IMG/VR virus record: IMGVR_UViG_3300023106_000010
Coordinates: 1 to 64,000 of that record
Source of the DNA: a virus
Direction: 5' to 3' (one strand)
Length of the DNA: 64,000 nt
Positions 1,524-25,337 of this stretch are shown here, piece by piece. Numbering within the stretch: the first letter of the stretch is position 1; every line of letters starts with the position of its first letter. Under the pieces are notes generated by a model. It saw only the letters and a program-made list of their open reading frames with translations. It had not been told where the DNA came from and searched no databases. The translations under genes and the position numbers were made by a program.

Positions 1524-4500
1524 ATGACTTATGAAATTGAGCCTCTTACAAAAGAGGAAAAGAAGTGGATTAAAGACTTTCAAAAGCTTATGGATAAATG
1601 TCCGTCTAAGCGTTTTGGTTGCTACACCACAGGAGATTGCAATCTTGCAATATATGATAAACCTGTGTTCGACTCTGTTAGAGAAGAAAGTAGGCGCTAC
1701 GAAGAATTAGATGATGTTATTGTACATCAAGAAATAGGTACAATTCTAGACGAAGTATTTATGCCGTTTCAGGTTGACGGTGTGGCAGGTTGATATGCAA
1801 TCACGTAATCAACGAGAAGGCCACTATGCCGGATACACCCGTTGGCACGGAGGACATCATTACAGGCGTAAATTCTTCGTTCGTACAGCTACAATGACAA
1901 AGTGCGGAGCTATTGTTGTAAAACGGCACAACAAATAATTGTACATTTCTCTTGCGTTGGTGCGGAAGATATGAGATGATGTGTCTATCGGTAGCGCAAG
2001 CGAACGACAAGCGAAGCGCAGAATTGGAAGTGCAGAGGTAAGCACCGAACGATTGGAAGCAAACACACAACAGGAGGAACAAAATGCTCAAGTTCACAAT
2101 AGCTAAGAAAACTTGCAAATGCTTCCTGTGTGGTGCAGAAATCAAAGAAGGACAGAAAGCACAATGGTTCGAGAAAGTTTCTACAGGTCATGGTGAGTGG
2201 TCCGGCAAAGCTTACAATCGTACACAATGGAAATTGATCTGCGAAAGCGGCTGTGGTGATCGTTTGCACGCCAAAGAGTTACTAGCTAAGACTACCAAAG
2301 AACAACAAGATGCTCATTTCTTGATAGCTCAACTGAGGTCCATAGCTACACCAGAACAGGATATTATTAAGATGATTGACTACTACGCGCAGAAGGGTAT
2401 TGTCGTATCATGACCACCCTAATCAAATACCTACAGCAACACTCTATCAACGTCCTCTCCGCGCATGAGGGAAAGATTGTTGTAGAGGCTGTTTACAGCA
2501 AGGATGGAGTAGCATTTTCGCAAGAGGAAACTATTGAGGCTGATTTTGGGGCTGTGCGGGATTGGCTGGGATACTAGCGCAAGCTAGTCTTTCTCTGATT
2601 TACATTCGATCAAGTATTAAGGATAAAATCATGAATACATACAAAATTGTTGTTAAAGATACCGGTGAAGAACTGCGAGTTTTCTACGGCGATGTCTACC
2701 TTGACGAGTGTCTCTCTACTTGGAGACGTGTCATTGGTAAAGAGATTATTGCTGTTCTTGTAAAAGGGTAGAAATAGCTTGCATTCCCTCACAACATAGC
2801 GTATTATTCTTTACATGGGCTGAGGCAATGTGCTGAGGCGGAATGATTCTTAGGAGAAATAACATGCAAGTCAAGATTACATATAATAGCAACGATAACG
2901 CAATCTTCACCGGCGTAACGAGTATTGTCGAAAAGAGCGACGGCTACGGCAGCAAAGTTTATTCTTTGTACAGTGCTGAAGGATTGCTGTATAGTATTGG
3001 CGACAGTCAGATCAAAACTATTGAGATTGTATGAAAATTCGTTGGTATGATGATGACCAATACGTTACCGCCGAAACTGTTGAATCTAGTATGAAAGGAA
3101 TTCCCATGTTCAAACAAGGTGACATTGTGGTATGTGTTGACGATGAAGATTCAGAGGCTAACGCTCTGTGCGTAATGCCTCTTTTGCAACACTTGGCACA
3201 ATACACTGTAGAAGACTCTGAGACATTCTTTGTCAAGCTGGAGGGTGTTCAGGGTGAGTGGCATGAGACTAGGTTTGTTTTGGCTGAGGAGGATGTATGA
3301 GCAAAATAACGTTTAAAGGAGATATGACGCCTCCTAAGTACGAACATGGTCAAGCTGTGCGCTACCTTAGTAGCGATGGCGTAGTACAGCACAGGAAGCA
3401 TTCTAAGGACACTAATAGCTGGAGTTATGGCGTTGTGTTCGGAGGAATGCTAGGTTTGCAATGGATGAGTGAGGAGCATGTTAAGGTTTGTGCTGTCTCA
3501 GAATAACAACATTCAATTTATTTGAAGAATTCTCTTGTGTTCTTTGTGGATGGGTGTATACTTAATACATCGAGCAAGCAAACACAAACAGGAGAAAATC
3601 ATGAACGTAATCGAACTCTTCAAAGACATCAAAAGCGAATGCCTCACTGAAGTAAAATCCGCTGCTGTCACTTTCTATAGTGACGTACGAGGACTAACGA
3701 TTCGACAGACATTCTACGTCTACCCTGATGATTCCATTGTTAGTCTTATGTCATTCGACGGTGGTTATGAAGTTGTTAGCCTTAATAACGAAGAGTCCTC
3801 TATTTTCCGTCATCTCAATCAAAGCTACTTCTACCTATAATGAAAATCATCAAAATGAACTATAGCCGTAACCCTTGGAGGCTTGTAACCTCTGAGGGAA
3901 TGGAAGTGTATATTGACACTCCTATGAAGCATCCGTCACTAGGGGAGACTATTATAAATGGGCCTGTGTGCGGAGCGACTAAAGCGGATTGCCAAGAAAT
4001 TGCTTTGAGTATGTTGGAGCATTTTCTTAAAAGGAAGTAATCTTCGTTGTAAGAACACAACATAACAAATAATTACGCTCATGTGCAAATAATGCTTGCA
4101 TGTGGGCTTTGTTACGTATATAATTACTACATCAACTAAGGAGAACAACATGATTAAGACTTGTAACGGTTGTAGGGCCATGGAGACATCACAATACAGT
4201 AAGTGTTTGCTAGGGTACAAACTAGATGTTGTTAAGACCCTATTGGGAGTTCAAGTAGGGTGTAAGCCTAGTGGTGGGGATTGCCCTAAGCCTAAGAACA
4301 ATGATGATCTGTGTTATTACTTGTTGAGGAAACATCAATTATGACTATTACAAAGAACATCGGCTACGCATACCCTACTAGCCCTCTCGCTAAAGAGCTA
4401 GGCTATGGTCCTGTAGGCTGCTGGTACATAGCCCTGTATGACGATGACAATCCCATCAAGAACAATAACGTATGCGCAGCGGCTGAGAAGAGGGAAGGAC

Positions 4501-4626: not shown

Positions 4627-5500
4627 CTATCTAAAAGTATCGTAATATAGTACTTATAGTAGTCTCACACAGTACCTCTTATTGTGCCTAAAATATAGGC
4701 AGCTATCATACACTATAGTAAGTGTTATACCTGACCAACACACTGCCTAATTATTGTGCAGTATTAAACCCACAATTCCCACCCGAATCCCCTCGCATCT
4801 TATCGCGCAGAACATTCTCATTAATAACCAACGAGTCATTAATATCCTACAATGTTGCTACAAGGTAACGCTCTCAACTGTTTCCAAGAAGCATTATGTT
4901 ACAGCAGAGTAACAATTAGCAGCCTGATAACATATCGAGCAGGGATTATTCAGCAGAGGGGTTGTGAGGGGCTGTATGGGCAAGCATAGGTGACATATCA
5001 AAGCGGCAGAATGGGAGGCTCTGAGAGGGTGTAGAGGCTTGATTACAAAGGGATTATAGGCGGCAGATAAAGCGGCAGCTATCACGAATAGACATGCAGA
5101 TTATGAATGACCAGATGAGAATCATTCCTATCCTATAATCATTTGAATAGAGGGAGGACGGCTGCAATAGGTGGTTACGAGGGTAAACTACTGTACGAAT
5201 ATACAGATATTTCGTTGTCTTAGTAGCAACACTACAGCCACCGTGCGGCAGGTTTAATACCACTTGCGCCTATGACCATTTCCAAAGACACTCTCAACGC
5301 ACCAAAATTGTGCAAAATAATCCTGCCAATAAGGCGCAAATAAGCTCAGATATTCTGCAAATAAGCCCTATCTAAGAAATAGAAATAGGGACTCTTTCAA
5401 AAAATTATTTTCAAAATTTCCTGTAAATATTCTTGCACAATATAGGAAATCTCTGTACAATCTCTACATCGAGAATGAATTACTGGAAAGAGATAAAATC
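4627..5500. other. ~0.87-kb non-coding region (candidate origin, res or packaging site)
   Basis: No credible ORF; phased GC(A/C)AATAA repeats; C-rich then G-rich segments; inverted repeat over the recombinase promoter. Confidence 0.45.
5433..5461 (+). promoter_or_regulatory. promoter of the serine recombinase, overlapped by an inverted repeat
   Basis: TTGCAC-N17-TACAAT; ATTTCCTGTA (5416-5425) / TATAGGAAAT (5441-5450). Confidence 0.55.
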
Positions 5501-11127: not shown

Positions 11128-11451
11128 GTGGCAGTAGCTAAAAAAGATGAAAATAGGGTGATTAAGCCTCGCAAGACACCGACAGCACTAATGAAGATTA
11201 TTAAGGCGCTAGACAAGGCTTCGTTCACAGCAGTAGCGAGGCTGGAAAAACTTTGTGACAGTTCTGATGAGAAAATTGGCCTAGACGCAAGTAAGGCAGT
11301 GTTGAGTCTGCGAGATGACATGGAGAACAACGCTAAAAAGATAGAGTTGCAGAGAATGATAGTTGAGCAAAAGCTGGGCAAGGGAATACAAACGGAAGAT
11401 GAGGATGATACCCCTACTGTCGATTTTGAGCAGATTCAGGAAATCTCTTGA
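11128..11451 (+). CDS. probable terminase small subunit
   Basis: Small helical protein, GTG start after AAGGAGG, first gene of the rightward late block upstream of terL. Confidence 0.55.
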   Translation: MAVAKKDENRVIKPRKTPTALMKIIKALDKASFTAVARLEKLCDSSDEKIGLDASKAVLSLRDDMENNAKKIELQRMIVEQKLGKGIQTEDEDDTPTVDFEQIQEIS

Positions 11452-11476
11452 CAGGTGTGAGAATTGTGCGTAGAAT
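11448..11476 (+). promoter_or_regulatory. sigma70-type promoter driving the RNA array
   Basis: TTGACA-N17-TAGAAT; the -35 overlaps the terS stop codon. Confidence 0.8.
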
Positions 11477-11491
11477 GGTTGTATTGTAAAG

Positions 11492-11579
11492 AATCTGATG
11501 GACGCTACCTGAAGATAGATGGCTGCACTCTGTTTCTACGACAGAGGAAATTATGCAACGGTAAGAGTCCGAGTAGATT
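11492..11579 (+). ncRNA. candidate structured RNA or leader
   Basis: Nested helices AATCT/AGATT, GGAC/GTCC, TACC/GGTA, TGCA/TGCA, CTCTGT/ACAGAG. Confidence 0.4.
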
Positions 11580-11618
11580 GTGCCAGAGATGGCTTACTTA
11601 GATAGACAGGAAGATACT

Positions 11619-11861
11619 ATGTTTTTGAAGATTATGAGTGACGATGGCCTTGCAGATAAAGATTATCGCAAGAAGTTCAAGATGATTGAAGTTGTTCAAT
11701 ATGAGTTTTACAAATCTTTTGGTGAGGGTCTTGCAGAGTCTTTCCCTTGTGTTCGTTATACAGATGTCATTGGCAGAGAGAGTTCTTCGGCCATTGACGG
11801 TAATGTGTATGTGATGAACGATCAAGGCAAGACCATTGAAAGCTGGTCGCCTAATACGTAA
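11619..11861 (+). CDS. hypothetical phage protein
   Basis: AGGA RBS, MFLKIMSD...; C-terminal YVMNDQGKTI motif seen in small phage proteins. Confidence 0.65.
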   Translation: MFLKIMSDDGLADKDYRKKFKMIEVVQYEFYKSFGEGLAESFPCVRYTDVIGRESSSAIDGNVYVMNDQGKTIESWSPNT

Positions 11862-11867
11862 AGTTTT

Positions 11868-11960
11868 GCCCACTTCCCATAGCTGGCCGATTGGGCTACC
11901 CTTGTAAGGTAGAATAAGTGTAAACTAACGTCGTGGGTTCAAATCCTACAGTGGGCACCA
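11868..11960 (+). tRNA. trnT: tRNA-Thr(UGU) with unusually long variable region
   Basis: GCCCACT/AGTGGGC acceptor, CTACC-CTTGTAA-GGTAG anticodon arm, GGTTCAAATCC T arm, encoded CCA. Confidence 0.8.
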
Positions 11961-11973
11961 AGTTATTACAGAA

Positions 11974-12214
11974 CGTGTCGGAACTTATCTTTCAGAACGG
12001 GTTAGCCAGCAACGTACACAACGCTACGGACGACTGGAGACTAGTGACTATATCTAGCGAGGGGCTGATAACCCCGGATATAGTTTAAGCCCTAGTATCT
12101 GTATCTAGGCACCATAAAGAAATGAAGGGACGCCTTCTAAAGTCTTCGGAGTGCAAACCTCTGGCCTACAGCAGTTCGTCTGTCTGTAGCTGTTAAGTTT
12201 GACACGGAGCACCA
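11974..12214 (+). ncRNA. unidentified ~240-nt structured RNA (RNA-A)
   Basis: At least 8 nested helices closed by CGTGTCGGAACTTA/TAAGTTTGACACG; ends in ACCA. Confidence 0.65.
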
Positions 12215-12219
12215 ATTGT

Positions 12220-12500
12220 ATTGAAGTAGTATTTAGCAGGAGCGATGTGGGAAGCAGACACATTAATCAGGGAAACGAGACTTCGTTCGGTGAGACCGCG
12301 TAACGATATTGTCTAGCGAAATAGCGGGATTGGATACTCTCTGAGGAGGCCAGAAATGGTGTTACCCCTATGACAGTGGATACGGTTAGGTTGGAAGTCC
12401 AAGCCATTGACTAGACGGAAGGGTAAAACGAGGCGTCGTCACACGCCTATTGTTCCTTTGCTAGAGTAGCGCCTAGCCTCCTGCTAAATACTACTTCAAT
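12220..12500 (+). ncRNA. unidentified ~280-nt structured RNA (RNA-B)
   Basis: Perfect 23-bp terminal inverted repeat, internal hairpins with GNRA loops, predicted pseudoknot. Confidence 0.7.
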
Positions 12501-12507
12501 TTTCAAA

Positions 12508-12583
12508 GCGGGATTAGCTCAGTTGGTAGAGCGATATCTTTCCAAGTTATAGGTCGTCGGTTCGAAGCCGTCATCCCGCTCCA
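12508..12583 (+). tRNA. trnG: tRNA-Gly(UCC)
   Basis: GCGGGAT/ATCCCGC acceptor, AGTTGGTA D loop, TTTCCAA anticodon loop, GGTTCGAAGCC, TCCA end. Confidence 0.93.
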
Positions 12584-12584
12584 G

Positions 12585-12657
12585 AATGTTTCCAGCTTCG
12601 CTCCTTGGTGTGAATCCTCCTCTCCGGGTATCTGAGTTGAGCGAAGCTGGAAGTGTT
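12585..12657 (+). ncRNA. candidate small hairpin RNA with CCUCCU in its loop
   Basis: Perfect 14-bp stem TTCCAGCTTCGCTC/GAGCGAAGCTGGAA with a 35-nt loop. Confidence 0.5.
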
Positions 12658-12837
12658 TTGTATAAGGTTTAAAGCAAAAGTGATGATTTCTAATCGTTTT
12701 TGAGCAGAAATATACATTTTAAAGCATTTGTTATGTTCATAAAAGGTGGTTTTGAATATTAACAAGTTGTGGAGAGGGTGCTTATGTGAGCACTAAGTTG
12801 CAGAGCAAGGTATAGCGTGGCGTCTGCACAAGAACAT

Positions 12838-12994: not shown

Positions 12995-14416
12995 ATGGCT
13001 GCTAAAGTTAGTCTTGGTCCAAGCTCTGAGACACACAGAAAGTTTTTAAACTGTAAAAGTGATTATGTAATTTTTGGCGGCGGCGCTGGCTGCGGAAAAT
13101 CACACCAAGCATTACTGCTAATCCTAAAGTACATGAAAGACCCTAATTTCAGGGCAGTATTTATCCGCGAAACTTCTACGCAGCTTTCTCAGGCTGGTGG
13201 ATTGTACCAAGAAGCTGTCGCAATGTGGAGACAATTTGGAGCGGTGTTTAAGACACACCCTCAGATGACCGCAACATTTCCATCCGGCGCACAAGTGCAG
13301 TTTAAAGTTTGTGGTGCAGACCGTGATATCACCAACTACGACGGTGGACAGTATTCACTAGTTGTTTTTGATGAAGCACAAAATCACACACAGGTACAAG
13401 TACGTTATCTTGAGTCTCGCATCCGCTCTAAGGCCAAAGGCCCACACCAACTCGTAGCCACTTGCAATCCCCGGTATAATTCCCACTTGATGCCATTTGT
13501 AGAGGCTTATCTTGATCCAGTGACAGGTATTCCTCGCCCAGAGATGTCAGGTGTAGAACGCTTCTATGGTTCCTACGAAGGTACATTAGTATTTGGTGCG
13601 TCTCAAGAAGAGTTGAATACGAAGTATCCGGGTATTCAGTGCCAATCTTATACGTACATCGCGGCTACTATTAAAGACAACCCGATCATGAATAAGATCA
13701 ATCCGGGCTATGTAAAGCGTCTGGAAAATCTTAAACGTGTAGAACGTGAGCGTCTGTTACTTGGATCGTGGTTTGCTAAAGAATCCACGGCAGGTTACTT
13801 CAAGCGCGAGTGGGTTGAGGAAATTGACAGTGCTCCGAATAACATAACAAATCGTGTACGCGGTATGGATTTGGCAGGTAGCTTACCTTCTGAATCTTAT
13901 CCAGACCCGGATTGGACAGCTTCTGTCATGATGTCGCGTACTGCTGACGGTTTCTATATTGTAGAGCATGGAGAAAGATACCGCAAGCTAATTAATGGTG
14001 TTCTGGAACAAATTGTCGAGACTGACAAAAAGGATAAGAGTTTCGGACTAGAACCTGCTGTTTACACGCCTACGGACCCCGGCCAAGCAGGCAAGGCTGC
14101 AAATATGTTCTTCATTAAGTATCTCGTAGAGAATGGCGTAGATGCCAGAACAGAGGTTAGCAACACCACTGGCAAGTTATCTAAGATGCAACCTTTCTTG
14201 TCTCTTGCCGAAGCTGGTTTGGTGAAGGTTGTCAAGGGAGAGTGGACAGAAGCTTGGTACAACGAGCTTGAGGATTATGTTGACGGTAATCGCCAGCAGA
14301 AGGATGACTATTGGGATGCCACCGGGACAGCAGCTAAAGCGTTGATGAAACAAGTAACAATCCCGAGTTTTGTCATACCTCAATTCACGCAAGCTAGTCC
14401 AATTCCGACTATCTAA
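12995..14416 (+). CDS. terL: terminase large subunit
   Basis: GGGAGCGKS Walker A, VVFDEA Walker B, ATCNP coupling motif, GMDLA and KDDYWDA nuclease motifs. Confidence 0.95.
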   Translation: MAAKVSLGPSSETHRKFLNCKSDYVIFGGGAGCGKSHQALLLILKYMKDPNFRAVFIRETSTQLSQAGGLYQEAVAMWRQFGAVFKTHPQMTATFPSGAQVQFKVCGADRDITNYDGGQYSLVVFDEAQNHTQVQVRYLESRIRSKAKGPHQLVATCNPRYNSHLMPFVEAYLDPVTGIPRPEMSGVERFYGSYEGTLVFGASQEELNTKYPGIQCQSYTYIAATIKDNPIMNKINPGYVKRLENLKRVERERLLLGSWFAKESTAGYFKREWVEEIDSAPNNITNRVRGMDLAGSLPSESYPDPDWTASVMMSRTADGFYIVEHGERYRKLINGVLEQIVETDKKDKSFGLEPAVYTPTDPGQAGKAANMFFIKYLVENGVDARTEVSNTTGKLSKMQPFLSLAEAGLVKVVKGEWTEAWYNELEDYVDGNRQQKDDYWDATGTAAKALMKQVTIPSFVIPQFTQASPIPTI

Positions 14417-14518: not shown

Positions 14519-16021
14519 ATGGCTGATACAACAACGCCATCTGGCGATAATTCCGCAGCAGCTTCCCCCGACGAAGGCGTAACAATTCCTCGAATGGCTC
14601 TTACAGAGCAAGGTTTTGTGGGATTAAAACAACGCAACGGTCACATCTATTCTGAGTCTAACACAGTATTTCAATACCCGGCCTTCACCAAAACAGTAAA
14701 TGAAATTCGCAACAACCCTACGGTTGGTGGCGCAATGAATGTTTATCGTATGATGATTTCAAGGGTTAACTGGCGAGTAGAACCTCCTGCAAATGCCACT
14801 GAGCTTGAAAAGCAACGAGCTAAAATAGTAGCATCCATGATGGATGACATGGAAGGTAGTTGGAAAGGATTTATCGAAGAAGTTGTCCCATATCTGGAAT
14901 ATGGCTTTGACATTCACGAGAAAGTCCTCCGTCGCCGATTGCTCCGTAACGGATCAAAATACAATGACGGAATTGTAGGTATTCGTAAGCTTGCCCCTCG
15001 CAATCAAGACACTATCTGTAAATGGAATTTTGATGACACTGGTGCGTATCTGCTAGGTGTTCAGCAAGACATTTCAAATGTGGAAGATGCTGTTAGGTTT
15101 TCCAATAGAAAAGACCCGATGACAGGTTTGGTGAATATTGAACGAGAGAAGTTCTTGTTGTTCACTGCCTCTGGAAACAAAGGCAACCCTCAAGGAAATT
15201 CTATTTATAAGTCAATCTATCTTGCGTTCAAAACCTTGACGCTACTCCAAGAGAGTGAATTGATTGGCACTGCAAAAGATGTCCAAGGTATTCTAAAGAT
15301 CACTATCCCTCCTAAGTATCTGGCACCGGATGCAAGCGCAGCAGATAAAGCAGTAGTAGTAGCCTTCCAGTCGATTATTGATAATTATAATCTAGGTACT
15401 CAACGAGGTTTGCTCGTACCTAACGTTACAGATGACCACGGAAACCAAATGTTCACATATGAGCTTATGGAATCCAAAGGTAATTCTAAATACGACATTG
15501 AAAACATCATCACACGCCTCCAGTCTGACATTCTTTCTGCACTTAGTGTCGATGTTTTGAAGATGGGTGCAAATGGCTCTGGTAGTTTCAGCTTAGCTGA
15601 AAGTAAGACATCAATTCTTGCATTGGCTATTGACTACAGATTGCGTGAAATGGCTTCAACTCTGAATGAAGACCTGATGCGTACTATATACGCTGCTAAC
15701 GGTTGGAGTCAAGATAATCTTCCTAAGTTTGTCTACGAAGATATCGAAGACATTGACCTTGCCGAGTTCGCCAAAGCAATCCAACAAATTGTCAGTGTGA
15801 GTGCAATTGAGATTGACCGTCCATTTATGAATCGTGTTCGCAGAGCACTAGGCATCCCAGAGCGCCCTGAAGACGAGCCTGTAAGTAAGGACGAACTTCC
15901 TGCAACATTGGCTGCTGTGGAAACAAACGCTGCCGAAGGTATGACAACCGCAGGACCGGGAACTTCTAAAAGTCCTATGGGTAAGGGCGATGCGGGTACT
16001 GATAATGCAAACAACAAATAA
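14519..16021 (+). CDS. portal protein
   Basis: 500 aa after terL; YGFxxHEKV, GNPQGxS and GSFSLAESK motifs of the DUF935-like portal family. Confidence 0.85.
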   Translation: MADTTTPSGDNSAAASPDEGVTIPRMALTEQGFVGLKQRNGHIYSESNTVFQYPAFTKTVNEIRNNPTVGGAMNVYRMMISRVNWRVEPPANATELEKQRAKIVASMMDDMEGSWKGFIEEVVPYLEYGFDIHEKVLRRRLLRNGSKYNDGIVGIRKLAPRNQDTICKWNFDDTGAYLLGVQQDISNVEDAVRFSNRKDPMTGLVNIEREKFLLFTASGNKGNPQGNSIYKSIYLAFKTLTLLQESELIGTAKDVQGILKITIPPKYLAPDASAADKAVVVAFQSIIDNYNLGTQRGLLVPNVTDDHGNQMFTYELMESKGNSKYDIENIITRLQSDILSALSVDVLKMGANGSGSFSLAESKTSILALAIDYRLREMASTLNEDLMRTIYAANGWSQDNLPKFVYEDIEDIDLAEFAKAIQQIVSVSAIEIDRPFMNRVRRALGIPERPEDEPVSKDELPATLAAVETNAAEGMTTAGPGTSKSPMGKGDAGTDNANNK

Positions 16022-22494: not shown

Positions 22495-22851
22495 ATGGCA
22501 GCAGTAATTAACACTTCAAAGAGTGTACTGGGTTCTGTAACTCCAGTGCAAATCTCTTTGGCAACTTCTGGTGACACTCTCACCTACGTCCCTAACGCAG
22601 CACAAGAACTGATTCTTGTTAATACCAGTGCTTCACCAGTCGTAGTTACGATTGATGGCGCTTCTGGTACTACTATCCCAGTTCCTAATACTGGGGGTGC
22701 AACGTTCTCGGTAGCTGCTGGATACACCGTCTCGGTAGCTGCTAGTTCTACTTCTATCGTGATGCTAGATACGATTAGCAACTTCCTTTCTGGTGTTGTG
22801 GCAATTTCGGCAGCAACTGGCGCAGTGGTTAAAGCTGCTGTCATTCAATAA
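22495..22851 (+). CDS. putative virion structural protein
   Basis: Strong RBS, beta-rich, between tail terminator and tail tube. Confidence 0.55.
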   Translation: MAAVINTSKSVLGSVTPVQISLATSGDTLTYVPNAAQELILVNTSASPVVVTIDGASGTTIPVPNTGGATFSVAAGYTVSVAASSTSIVMLDTISNFLSGVVAISAATGAVVKAAVIQ

Positions 22852-22868
22852 TTTAAAGGAACAATAAA

Positions 22869-23336
22869 ATGGCAACTCTCGCATTTCCAAGTGCAGGTTC
22901 TAAGCTGTACATCTGCACCACTAACGCACCTCCTGCTACTTTCGATGCCGCTGGTTTCGGCGCACAAACTTATGTAGAAATCAAAGAACTGACTAACATT
23001 GGTGTTATCGGTGAAGTCGCTTCGCTGATTACTCACGAGCCTGTCGGCGATCCTTATGTCTATAAGTTCAAGGGTAACTATAACACAGGTCAACTGACCC
23101 TGCAAGGTGCTTACGCCCCTACCGATCCCGGCCAAGCTAAACTGCTGGTAGCTCTGCAAGACCCACTGGTTTACTCGTTCAAGCTGACCATCGGTGGTGG
23201 TACTACTGGTACTCCACAAGCAACGCTGTACGTGCAAGGTCAAGTTATGTCGGCACCTATCAATGTTGGTTCTGTGAATCAGATTACTGCAATTGATAGC
23301 ACCGTCGAACTGTCAGGCAAACTGATTAAAGCGTAA
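22869..23336 (+). CDS. major tail tube protein
   Basis: KFKGNYNTG...DPGQ motif; high-expression codon bias; followed by a terminator. Confidence 0.85.
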   Translation: MATLAFPSAGSKLYICTTNAPPATFDAAGFGAQTYVEIKELTNIGVIGEVASLITHEPVGDPYVYKFKGNYNTGQLTLQGAYAPTDPGQAKLLVALQDPLVYSFKLTIGGGTTGTPQATLYVQGQVMSAPINVGSVNQITAIDSTVELSGKLIKA

Positions 23337-23344
23337 TACAAATA

Positions 23345-23378
23345 GCCACTTGGGTAGAAATACTTGAGTGGCTTTCTT
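23345..23378 (+). terminator. intrinsic terminator after the tail tube
   Basis: AGCCACTTGGGTA-GAAA-TACTTGAGTGGCT then TTCTT. Confidence 0.75.
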
Positions 23379-23473
23379 ATCTAGTAACACTATATCAGAA
23401 CTTACACAAGTAAGTCAATATAAATTTCTAAGCCAATTGTGGCGAAGAACAATCTACCAAAGGAAATAATATT

Positions 23474-23875
23474 ATGGCAACTTTTAACCTGAAGTCCCTG
23501 CAACTGGCAGACACTACTATTGTCCATCTGAAGAATGCTGATGGCTCTTACCTGTACGCTGATGAAGCTGAGAAAGAGCCTCTGGAAGTAGAAGTGTTCG
23601 GTCGTTCTTCGAAACAAATGCGCAACTACCTGATTGCTGCTGAGAAGAAAAAAGCTAAGCGTGGCAAGCGTACTGCAACTCCAGAAGAAGCTCAAGAAGA
23701 CAACGCAGAGTTTTTTGCTGCAATCACCAAATCTGTCAAGAACTTCGATCTGGGCGACGGTCCTCTGACCACTCAAGATGACTTCAAGAAGATGTACCTT
23801 GATCCTGCACTGTACTTCGTAGTCGATCAAATCTCGGAAACCTTGGGCGATTCTGAAGTTTTTATGCAGAAGTAA
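23474..23875 (+). CDS. tail assembly chaperone (G)
   Basis: Position between tail tube and tape measure; ends ...EVFMQK. Confidence 0.8.
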   Translation: MATFNLKSLQLADTTIVHLKNADGSYLYADEAEKEPLEVEVFGRSSKQMRNYLIAAEKKKAKRGKRTATPEEAQEDNAEFFAAITKSVKNFDLGDGPLTTQDDFKKMYLDPALYFVVDQISETLGDSEVFMQK

Positions 23876-24414
23876 GAGAGAACCTCTCCCAATATGTCCG
23901 TCACAGTGCTTGGCTCAACGCCACTCCAGAAGGACAAAAGGGGGAGCCTAAATCTCGCAGAGAACAACGTGTGCAGGGTGATCCTATACTGGAACCTCTA
24001 CCACTATCCAGCTACGAGGAATATCTAGTAAGTCTTTGGAGAGAAGCTGGAACAGTCTCACAAAAAGGTATGGGCATTGATGCTCTTGACTGGACAGAGC
24101 TTATAGCGTGGTCAGAAAGATTCTACTCAGATACTCTTATAGAGTGGGTAAGAAATCCTGACAATAAACGTCATAAGCCTGTCCCTTTGCTTATCAAGTA
24201 TTGCACATTACCAGATGTAGATTTACAAATCATTCGTCAGATGAGTCAAGAATACTGTTGGATGTCACAAGAGGCAACAGACCCTCGCTGTGCTTGCCCA
24301 ATTGACGTTGAAGAACTTGAGATGAGTGAAGAACAGGAAGATGACGCAGTAGAAGATGTGTTGGCTAGCTTACGTGCTATGGGCTTCTTAGGTGAAGATG
24401 GACAGAGTTTATAA
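23857..24414 (+). CDS. tail assembly chaperone T segment, reached by -1 frameshift
   Basis: -1 frame open from 23857 (..YVRHSAWLNATPE..) with no good own start; GTT TTT slippery run at 23858-23863. Confidence 0.7.
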   Translation, partial: SFYAEVRENLSQYVRHSAWLNATPEGQKGEPKSRREQRVQGDPILEPLPLSSYEEYLVSLWREAGTVSQKGMGIDALDWTELIAWSERFYSDTLIEWVRNPDNKRHKPVPLLIKYCTLPDVDLQIIRQMSQEYCWMSQEATDPRCACPIDVEELEMSEEQEDDAVEDVLASLRAMGFLGEDGQSL

Positions 24415-24422
24415 AGGTTGCC

Positions 24423-25337
24423 ATGAGAAAATTTAGAAATACTGAGTCATTTATTCGAGATTGCATAGCGATTCATGGTAACAAATACACATACGAAGAT
24501 ACTGAATTCGTAAAAAGAAAAGACAATGTAGAAATCAATTGTGTAAAACATGGTAAATTTGAGATAAAAGCCGACAACCTACTGTCTGGAAAAGGTTGTA
24601 TGAAGTGCGCTGTCGAGAAAAGGGCAGATTTGCGTCGGGATACTACTGAAGACTTTATAGAAAAATCTAGAAAAGTACACGGCGACAAATACGATTACTC
24701 TATTTCTGTTTATGTGCTGGATGATGTGCCTTTGAACATTCGTTGTCCGATTCATGGAGATTTTAGTATGACTCCTGACGCCCACAAACACTCCCAAGGT
24801 TGTTCAAAATGTGCAAACGTCTCTAGGTCTAAGAAGCATTCGGATACGTTAGAAGACTTTGTAAGGAAAGCGAAGTTAACACATGGGGATAAGTACATTT
24901 ACTCTGAAGTGGATTATGTTGGGTCTAAGAGCAAGGTAAAGATAATTTGTCCGTCTATTGGACATGGGGCTTTTTATCAACAACCCGATAATCACATTGA
25001 AGGACAGGGTTGTCCTATTTGTCAACCGGGTGGGTTCAATAGCAAGCTCATGGGGTATGTTTACGTTCTTCAAGCAGGTAATATTACTAAAGTGGGCATC
25101 ACGAACAAATTACCAGAGCAACGCTGCAAGAAAGTTTCGGATTTTAGCAAAAAGAGTTTTGAAGTAGTTACTAGCTATCATCTGGAAGGATGTGAAGCGA
25201 GGAGATTGGAAAAGAGTGCACTTCTTTGGTTGGCAGAAAATTACGAAAAACAAGAGGACAAATTCAACGGCTCAACAGAGTGTTTTCTTGATGTAGATTT
25301 AACAGCCTTGATATTCAAGATTGAGCAATTAAAATAA
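24423..25337 (+). CDS. zinc-ribbon repeat plus GIY-YIG/T5orf172-like homing endonuclease
   Basis: Three HGxKYxY...CxxHGxF...GCxxC repeats; YVYVL..KVGIT..R..GSTECF. Confidence 0.8.
   Translation: MRKFRNTESFIRDCIAIHGNKYTYEDTEFVKRKDNVEINCVKHGKFEIKADNLLSGKGCMKCAVEKRADLRRDTTEDFIEKSRKVHGDKYDYSISVYVLDDVPLNIRCPIHGDFSMTPDAHKHSQGCSKCANVSRSKKHSDTLEDFVRKAKLTHGDKYIYSEVDYVGSKSKVKIICPSIGHGAFYQQPDNHIEGQGCPICQPGGFNSKLMGYVYVLQAGNITKVGITNKLPEQRCKKVSDFSKKSFEVVTSYHLEGCEARRLEKSALLWLAENYEKQEDKFNGSTECFLDVDLTALIFKIEQLK

Follow-up and report, generated by a model that had tools for sequence, protein, structure and literature searches.

A structured RNA gene in a phage tRNA operon is probably a distant homologue of T4 rnaD

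The question raised by this locus is what the stretch between two tRNA genes 5′ of terL encodes. We addressed it in a window of 64,000 nt, the whole stretch of DNA analysed, which was taken from an 86,910-base viral record (IMGVR_UViG_3300023106_000010); the phage, of about 87 kb, is not T4-like. The first-pass annotation had placed here a single structured RNA of about 240 nt (RNA-A, 11974–12214), closed by a helix 11974–87/12194–206 and ending in ACCA, and had offered it as a stable RNA processed with the tRNAs, possibly a decoy for anticodon nucleases, a CBASS-type RNA sensor or a packaging-associated RNA. ARAGORN called tRNAs at this locus at 11868–11960 and 12508–12583 only. The features of the locus are listed below, where A1 and A2 are the two parts into which the stretch between tRNA-Thr and RNA-B is divided in the following analysis.

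11448–11476, plus strand: sigma-70-like promoter TTGACA-17-TAGAAT with 11 of 12 hexamer matches, heading the RNA operon
Between the promoter and tRNA-Thr: 93-aa ORF of a phage family of unknown function (protein family match)
11868–11960, plus strand: tRNA-Thr(UGU), ending in GGCACCA and with a long variable region (ARAGORN; Rfam tRNA, 48.2 bits)
11961–12113, plus strand: A1, a putative insertion between tRNA-Thr and A2, with local hairpin arms 12047–54/12077–84
12114–12214, plus strand: A2, a predicted rnaD-like structured RNA gene of 101 nt (92 bits to the family model R1, covariation, match to the T4-like model R2; see below)
12215–12505, plus strand: RNA-B, the next structured RNA (z −3.95, 0 of 200 shuffles equally good)
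12508–12583, plus strand: tRNA-Gly(UCC) (ARAGORN, Rfam)
12995–14416: terL
14519–16021: portal gene

For comparison about 300 loci were fetched, which are given L-numbers here (L296, for example, is JG004 22657–24883). The promoter sequence at 11448–11476 was also present in the relative L291. When the locus was compared with a collection of cultured phages, the tRNA-Gly part was the sole match, and megablast of 8 kb gave none. The tRNA-Thr(UGU) that heads several arrays is 83–93 nt long with an extended variable region, which is unusual for a threonine tRNA (window 11868–11960; L291 427–512; L005 1542–1629; L031 9061–9143), while other relatives carry a normal version of 74–76 nt. A leader motif (AGAAUCUGA, 4–5 nt, GCUACC) recurs at the starts of units in these RNA operons (window 11490–11509; L285 847–866; L299 3422–3440 and 3698–3715), occurring once in the window against 0 expected by chance.

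All helices listed for the 241-nt model were present in the sequence. ACTATATC/GATATAGT is a perfect 8-nt inverted repeat, the closing helix occurred in both the MFE and the centroid fold of the 241 nt, GAAGG/CCTTC (12124–12137) and CTACAG/CTGTAG were both found in the MFE fold of the 3′ part, and ACCA was confirmed at 12111–14 and 12211–14. The fold energy of the whole, however, was no better than chance (z −1.34, 22 of 200 shuffles equally good), and the opposite strand of the same stretch gave z −1.44. Folded alone, A1, the 5′ 153 nt, had an MFE z of +0.35 (124 of 200 shuffles equally good), and A2, the 3′ 101 nt, was thermodynamically unexceptional at z −1.47 (13 of 200). The joint fold of A1 and A2 with the closing helix reached −72.9 kcal/mol against −65.0 for the domains folded apart, a gain of 7.9 kcal/mol, and the best local A1–A2 pairing of −19.8 kcal/mol was reached by 80 of 300 shuffles of A1. 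In these models an interaction between A1 and A2 is possible in the window, though no more than chance would give.

Comparison with relatives gave different results for the two parts. Relatives whose TerL is 66–72% identical have variable tRNA arrays in the corresponding position, and only 12109–12214 of RNA-A found a match in them. Pattern scans combined with R1, the covariance model of the A2 family, gathered 23 distinct sequences from viral and metagenome contigs, comprising 22 in the model alignment and L299, which was added through a neighbouring-protein search. Strict patterns matched 13 and 16 viral contigs and 19 metagenome contigs, 11 of the latter scoring with R1. A loose viral pattern returned 116 rows, mostly chance, among which L118 and L134 were the only new real members, and a T-variant pattern returned 13 rows and no new member. 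In the genome-contig scan none of 120 among the matches listed showed by eye the upstream hairpin and linker of the family, a count with no bearing on absence.

The MFE fold of the window's 101 nt was exactly the family consensus. From 5′ to 3′ the layout begins with a single-stranded AGAAA leader, a short hairpin and an AAG linker, which are followed by a near-invariant stem GUCNUCG/CGN′GCAC with a bulged C and a U·G pair. Inside this stem lie a GA internal loop, a freely covarying inner helix and a variable distal hairpin. In the window these parts are as follows.

12124–12137, plus strand: H1, a 5-bp hairpin with an invariant GACG loop (GAAGG/CCTTC of the 241-nt model); 5 of 5 pairs covary and 99% of cells are paired
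12142–12148, plus strand: 5′ strand of P1, GUCUUCG, followed by unpaired GA; invariant within the family, with its partner at 12205–12212
12154–12158, plus strand: 5′ strand of P2, CAAAC, with its partner at 12197–12201; 9 of 9 inner-helix pairs covary
12166–12189, plus strand: distal hairpin CUACAG...CUGUAG, which varies in sequence and length across the family
12197–12201, plus strand: 3′ strand of P2, GUUUG, bases also used by the closing helix of the 241-nt model
12205–12212, plus strand: 3′ strand of P1, CGGAGCAC, with one bulged C, followed by CA (MFE fold, stem-pair table)

Across the 22-sequence alignment 91.3% of cells were paired against 66.4% in shuffles, and the covariation score was 0.667 against 0.171 (0 of 500 shuffles as high), falling to 0.07–0.155 when the 3′ partners were slid, the alignment having been fitted to the R1 structure so that these pairing and covariation counts lean towards that structure. 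The stem CUUCG/CGGAG was invariant within the same set. On this comparative evidence, 12114–12214 is a predicted gene for a small, non-decoding structured RNA and the only conserved part of RNA-A.

Of the pairings in the 241-nt model, GAAGG/CCTTC and the helices inside 12114–12214 covaried, whereas the closing helix and CTGGAGACT/AGTCTTCGG were not conserved. The latter two occupy bases which the A2 family pairs otherwise, and the closing helix, by sharing 12197–12201 with the 3′ strand of P2, competes with the conserved fold. In L118, L134, L283, L291 and L275 the A2 element stands directly after a tRNA without the 5′ part, so the partners of the closing helix and of CTGGAGACT/AGTCTTCGG are absent there. 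The proposal of a structured RNA thus survives for the 3′ 101 nt, as a conserved RNA gene, and fails for a single unit of about 240 nt, whose 5′ 153 nt have neither a homologue nor significant structure.

The A1 stretch is bounded by a 7-nt direct repeat, GGCACCA, at 11954–60 and 12108–14, and the internal ACCA (12111–14) thus repeats the tRNA-Thr 3′ end. Homologues of A1 were found neither in the roughly 300 fetched loci nor in the phage collection. L291, the relative most similar at this position, keeps the upstream gene end, the promoter, the long-armed tRNA-Thr, the downstream tRNA-Gly and the post-tRNA hairpin, and there the rnaD-like RNA follows tRNA-Thr immediately, with no A1 between them. 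We also considered A1 as a decayed copy of tRNA-Thr, tRNA-Gly, A2 or RNA-B, and rejected this, the alignment scores being reached by 171, 50, 242 and 184 of 300 shuffles, respectively. These sequence comparisons lead us to read A1 as an insertion specific to this lineage, placed at the 5′ edge of the A2 gene.

In other relatives the 5′ border of the A2 element is occupied by short, unrelated hairpin elements, and some T4-like phages have a small ORF at the 5′ border of rnaD; judged from these arrangements, the border looks like an insertion hot spot. HNH genes adjoin the element in L035, L293, L285, L287 and L279, and no HNH match was found among the 9 neighbouring ORFs scanned in the window. 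L285 (1009–1809) and L281 (3935–4045) share an identical rnaD-like element, with an HNH gene ending exactly at its 5′ border in L285 and tRNA-Thr plus a spacer in that place in L281, and the HNH gene therefore looks like a homing-endonuclease insertion. A functional partnership between HNH gene and element was dropped in favour of such an insertion beside conserved sequence, considering that the L281 element lacks an HNH gene and that none lies by the window element.

In its wider context the element was always on the strand of the flanking genes, usually in the head/packaging module and usually upstream of terL, and an ARAGORN tRNA lay within about 200 nt of it in 17 of 23 members. Its immediate neighbours differed among loci. 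In L283, L134 and L118 tRNAs tightly flank it on both sides; in L118 and L275 it lies between scaffold and capsid genes, not before terL; in L035 it comes right after a TTGACA-17-TATAAT promoter; and in L032 it directly precedes an ORF start. The genome of the window phage has one copy. With R1 it was found in none of five related viral genomes, of which four are 90% complete or more, and the element is thus accessory and dispensable.

Several further observations were made in the arrays of these relatives. At the RNA-B position of L291 (623–709) lies an 87-nt element with a 12-bp closing stem followed by ACCA and, by eye, a T-arm-like hairpin loop TTCGATT. A second uncatalogued small element, starting with UCUACGCA and ending near UGCACUU, was seen in L010 (2209–2290), in L005 (1724–1790), in L034 (about 400–468) and twice in one contig in L019 (2853–2930 and 3104–3170). 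Its closing stem shows a compensatory change between copies, GCAC/GUGC versus GCAAGC/GCUUGC. The terL match extends over 1638–1714 nt in L008, L010, L011, L012 and L013, compared with about 1416 nt in other relatives, a difference in length that suggests an intron, intein or insertion in these five. In L299 an ORF at 3811–4253, Dps/ferritin-like by eye, lies inside the tRNA/RNA operon, just 5′ of a tRNA-Thr-like sequence not called by ARAGORN and an rnaD-like element. The tRNA array of JG004 (L296 22657–24883) has four unannotated gaps of 213–412 nt with no R1 or R2 match, and these gaps may hold other RNA genes.

Known RNA classes were searched over the same ground. In a scan of the whole window with Rfam 15 only tRNA reached the threshold; GOLLD, ROOL, Y RNA, phage pRNA, self-cleaving ribozymes and HEARO were not matched, and RNA-A has no Rfam family. 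Over 11400–12800 at E ≤ 10 the sole match within 11961–12214 was a 14.3-bit lncRNA on the minus strand. Group I introns, HEARO, ribozymes and pRNA were set aside, none being listed in these scans, and no packaging-RNA family was among the 9 matches of the 11400–12800 scan, which gives the suggested packaging RNA no support. A small ORF from the AUG at 12122 was likewise rejected: of the 22 aligned members 13 have AUG there, 2 have GUG and 7 have no start codon, and the stem changes were compensatory, not synonymous. The G of this AUG pairs with C24, a pair that becomes U-A in 3 members. A pseudoknot of the GACG loop with CGUC or GUC elsewhere and pairing of the AGAAAUG leader with the 3′ flank were both dropped, the partners being absent or not conserved by eye; a kink-turn in the stem and CsrA-type GGA sites were also dropped by eye.

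As for likeness to tRNA, neither a cloverleaf nor an acceptor stem with T-arm was found in A2 by ARAGORN or by the models of the Rfam tRNA clan, which had no match in 11961–12214 at E ≤ 10. A single-stranded 3′ NCCA is not a property of the A2 family either. ACCA occurred only in the window, L038 and L274 of 23 members, and in A2 half of it, the A and the first C, is paired in P1; among T4-like rnaD genes it occurred in 2 of 6. The tRNA-like CCA end therefore fell away as a defining feature. There is no support for a packaging role or for tRNA mimicry of A2.

The setting of the locus resembles that of the two stable RNAs of T4, and the T4 tRNA region was therefore compared. The order there is tRNA-Arg, rnaD (species 2, 119 nt; NC_000866 71053–71171) and rnaC (species 1, 139 nt). 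R2, a covariance model built from six T4-like rnaD genes alone, was run on window positions 1–50000 on both strands with filters off (100 kb) and gave its best match at 12116–12214 with 26.4 bits and an E value of 7.7e−5; the runner-up had 12.1 bits. R2 also matched L291 (28 bits), L283, L134 and L299 at the exact coordinates of the element, with cross-family scores of 15–28 bits, and at E ≤ 1 gave no match on 6 of 10 family loci (L118, L035, L279, L282, L275 and L278). Conversely, the top match of R1 on T4 66000–76000 (filters off, 20 kb searched) was at 5053–5173 of that segment, compared with 5054–5172 for the annotated rnaD, with 12.6 bits and an E value of 0.049. R1 gave no match in Felix O1, JG004 and T5, and it missed T4 when default filters were on; R2 had no credible match in the arrays of JG004 and of relatives.

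A MAFFT alignment of 20 family members and 5 T4-likes contained 18 invariant columns. Pair 32–118 of the shared stem was U-A in 20 of 20 family members, G-C in 5 of 5 T4-likes and never unpaired, so this single compensated change tests a stem that is otherwise frozen. A scan for intermediate forms with further compensated stem variants gave 3 rows, all of them chance matches in coding-like, GC-rich DNA. Considering the two-way model matches, the matching ends, the compensated stem pair and the shared setting, we regard 12114–12214 as, with good probability, a distant homologue of T4 rnaD.

These comparisons make it most likely that A2 is a stable, non-decoding RNA excised together with the tRNAs. 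A2 would be transcribed from the promoter at 11448 within the tRNA operon 5′ of terL, and the cuts that mature the flanking tRNAs would release it. In several members tRNAs lie within a few bases on both sides, so that tRNA-maturing cuts would free the element. Once released, A2 would be stable in the manner of T4 rnaD. Stem and linker stay frozen in two very different groups of phages, with every other helix covarying, which points to sequence-specific recognition by a conserved partner; the stem, internal loop and hairpin would then form a platform read in that way. The partner would most likely be a host protein or RNP, and the RNA an accessory, host-dependent factor, perhaps a decoy, a regulator or a processing aid. 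The earlier idea of a stable RNA processed with the tRNAs thus holds in spirit for the 3′ 101 nt, as an rnaD-type homologue in a tRNA operon, and does not extend to all 240 nt; the roles as decoy or CBASS sensor are speculative. A bolder version, rather doubtful at present, takes rnaD-type RNAs as one ancient superfamily across unrelated phages, both T4-like ones and those of 80–90 kb with a tRNA array before terL, whose platform binds a conserved host factor and gives a role in host range or counter-defence, with the 153-nt insert gating the fold in this phage as a lineage-specific anti-helix.

Other explanations account for part of these data. A cis-acting element on the operon transcript, serving either as a signal for tRNA processing or stability or as a put-like antitermination RNA through which RNA polymerase would read on into terL, would fit the constant strand, the usual position 5′ of terL, the promoter directly before the element in L035 and the ORF start directly behind it in L032. 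We nevertheless consider it unlikely, since processing of the tight tRNA flanks in L283, L134 and L118 would detach the element from the transcript, the homologue in T4 is, according to its annotation and PMC9697503, a separate RNA that is stable and accumulates, and the copies in L118 and L275 lie between scaffold and capsid genes rather than before terL. Slightly less probable still is one RNA of about 240 nt closed by 11974–87/12194–206, in which the two halves would cooperate; the 5′ half might, for instance, be a switch opening the conserved inner helix. The presence of the closing helix in MFE and centroid and the 7.9 kcal/mol gain of the joint fold speak for it, yet z was only −1.34, the 5′ half has no homologue and a z of +0.35, its best duplex with the 3′ half was equalled by 80 of 300 shuffles, the closing helix destroys the covarying P2, and L291, L283, L134, L118 and L275 carry the 3′ element without the 5′ half.

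The likeness to T4 rnaD could itself be convergent or due to chance, making A2 an independent new RNA family. Low cross-family scores (12.6 and 15–28 bits), differing hairpin and internal loops and the lack of intermediates in the stem-variant scan would be expected on that account. Against it stand reciprocal best matches that meet the annotated ends within 1 nt, the 18 invariant columns, the bulged C and U·G at the same position in stems that differ by one compensated pair, and the same genomic setting, and we judge the coincidence to be about as improbable as the 240-nt RNA. By far the least probable is a tRNA mimic with a functional CCA end, either aminoacylated or a decoy for anticodon nucleases or CCA-dependent enzymes. 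The element sits among tRNAs, and both the window copy and T4 rnaD end in GCACCA, but it lacks an anticodon loop, a T-arm and a cloverleaf, it goes undetected by ARAGORN and the Rfam tRNA models, ACCA is present in just 3 of 23 family members and 2 of 6 T4-likes, and the A and first C of ACCA are taken up in P1.

A2 is thus best described as a probable new and distant branch of rnaD-type RNAs in phages unrelated to T4. The abundant small RNAs rnaD and rnaC of T4 were recognised about 50 years ago, and no function has been assigned to them since (PMC3014915, PMC9697503); RNAC and RNAD come from the T4 tRNA region with roles given as unknown in PMC3014915, and they behave as late RNAs according to PMC9697503. 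Rfam 15 had no match to T4 rnaD. By blastn, 735 phage records contained rnaD-like sequences; nearly all of them belong to phages of enterobacteria, and in the 40 records listed of these 735 the region was mostly unannotated or lay under a ‘hypothetical protein’ CDS. The literature searched gave no description of rnaD relatives outside T4-like phages. The 2023 IMG/VR catalogue of 10,006 candidate RNAs (PMC10690425) may include the A2 motif in its supplementary tables.

A distant branch of this kind separates the frozen bases (leader, AAG linker, stem and GA loop) from the free ones (hairpin stem, inner helix and distal hairpin). This split offers a concrete target for mutagenesis and pull-down in T4, a phage with easy genetics. 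A recent report on a T4-like phage evolved on a semi-permissive host agrees with it, one SNP common to all lines being located in rnaD (PMC12685909). For annotation, the “gaps” in phage tRNA arrays can contain rnaD-type genes.

Among known systems, GOLLD, ROOL and bacterial Y RNA (YrlA) are non-coding structured RNAs that are often found beside tRNAs in phages. They differ from A2 in being several-fold larger or in having a tRNA-like domain that A2 is without, and none appeared in the 11400–12800 scan at E ≤ 10. The phi29 prohead RNA is likewise a phage-encoded structured RNA, and the first-pass annotation had drawn the link from the position of A2 adjoining terL; in contrast to it, A2 lies in a region with no Rfam match to that RNA, and some members of its family stand between scaffold and capsid genes. 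Pseudomonas phage JG004 resembles the window phage in having a tRNA array directly 5′ of terL and the portal gene. T4 rnaC (species 1) follows rnaD as RNA-B follows A2, a likeness in position between RNA-B and rnaC; rnaC contains a canonical T-arm, which A2 lacks, and is weakly tRNA-like, with a sub-threshold 17.5 bits to tRNA-Sec.

The closest comparison is with T4 rnaD. The T4 RNA is longer (119 nt versus 101 nt), has a 7-nt hairpin loop (GUCGCUA) in place of GACG, carries G-C in place of U-A at one stem pair and CGGCG where the A2 family has CGGAG, and its internal loop contains three additional unpaired A on the 3′ side. A2, for its part, is parted from the upstream tRNA by the 153-nt insertion, and it belongs to an 87-kb phage with its array before terL, whereas the T4 gene is far from the terminase genes. 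In both, nevertheless, an AGAAA leader, a hairpin, an AAG linker, a 7-bp stem with a bulged C and a U·G pair, a GA loop and a variable distal part follow one another in the same order (T4 MFE fold), the window and T4 copies both end in GCACCA, and the gene lies in a tRNA operon on the tRNA strand, right after a tRNA and before a second structured RNA.
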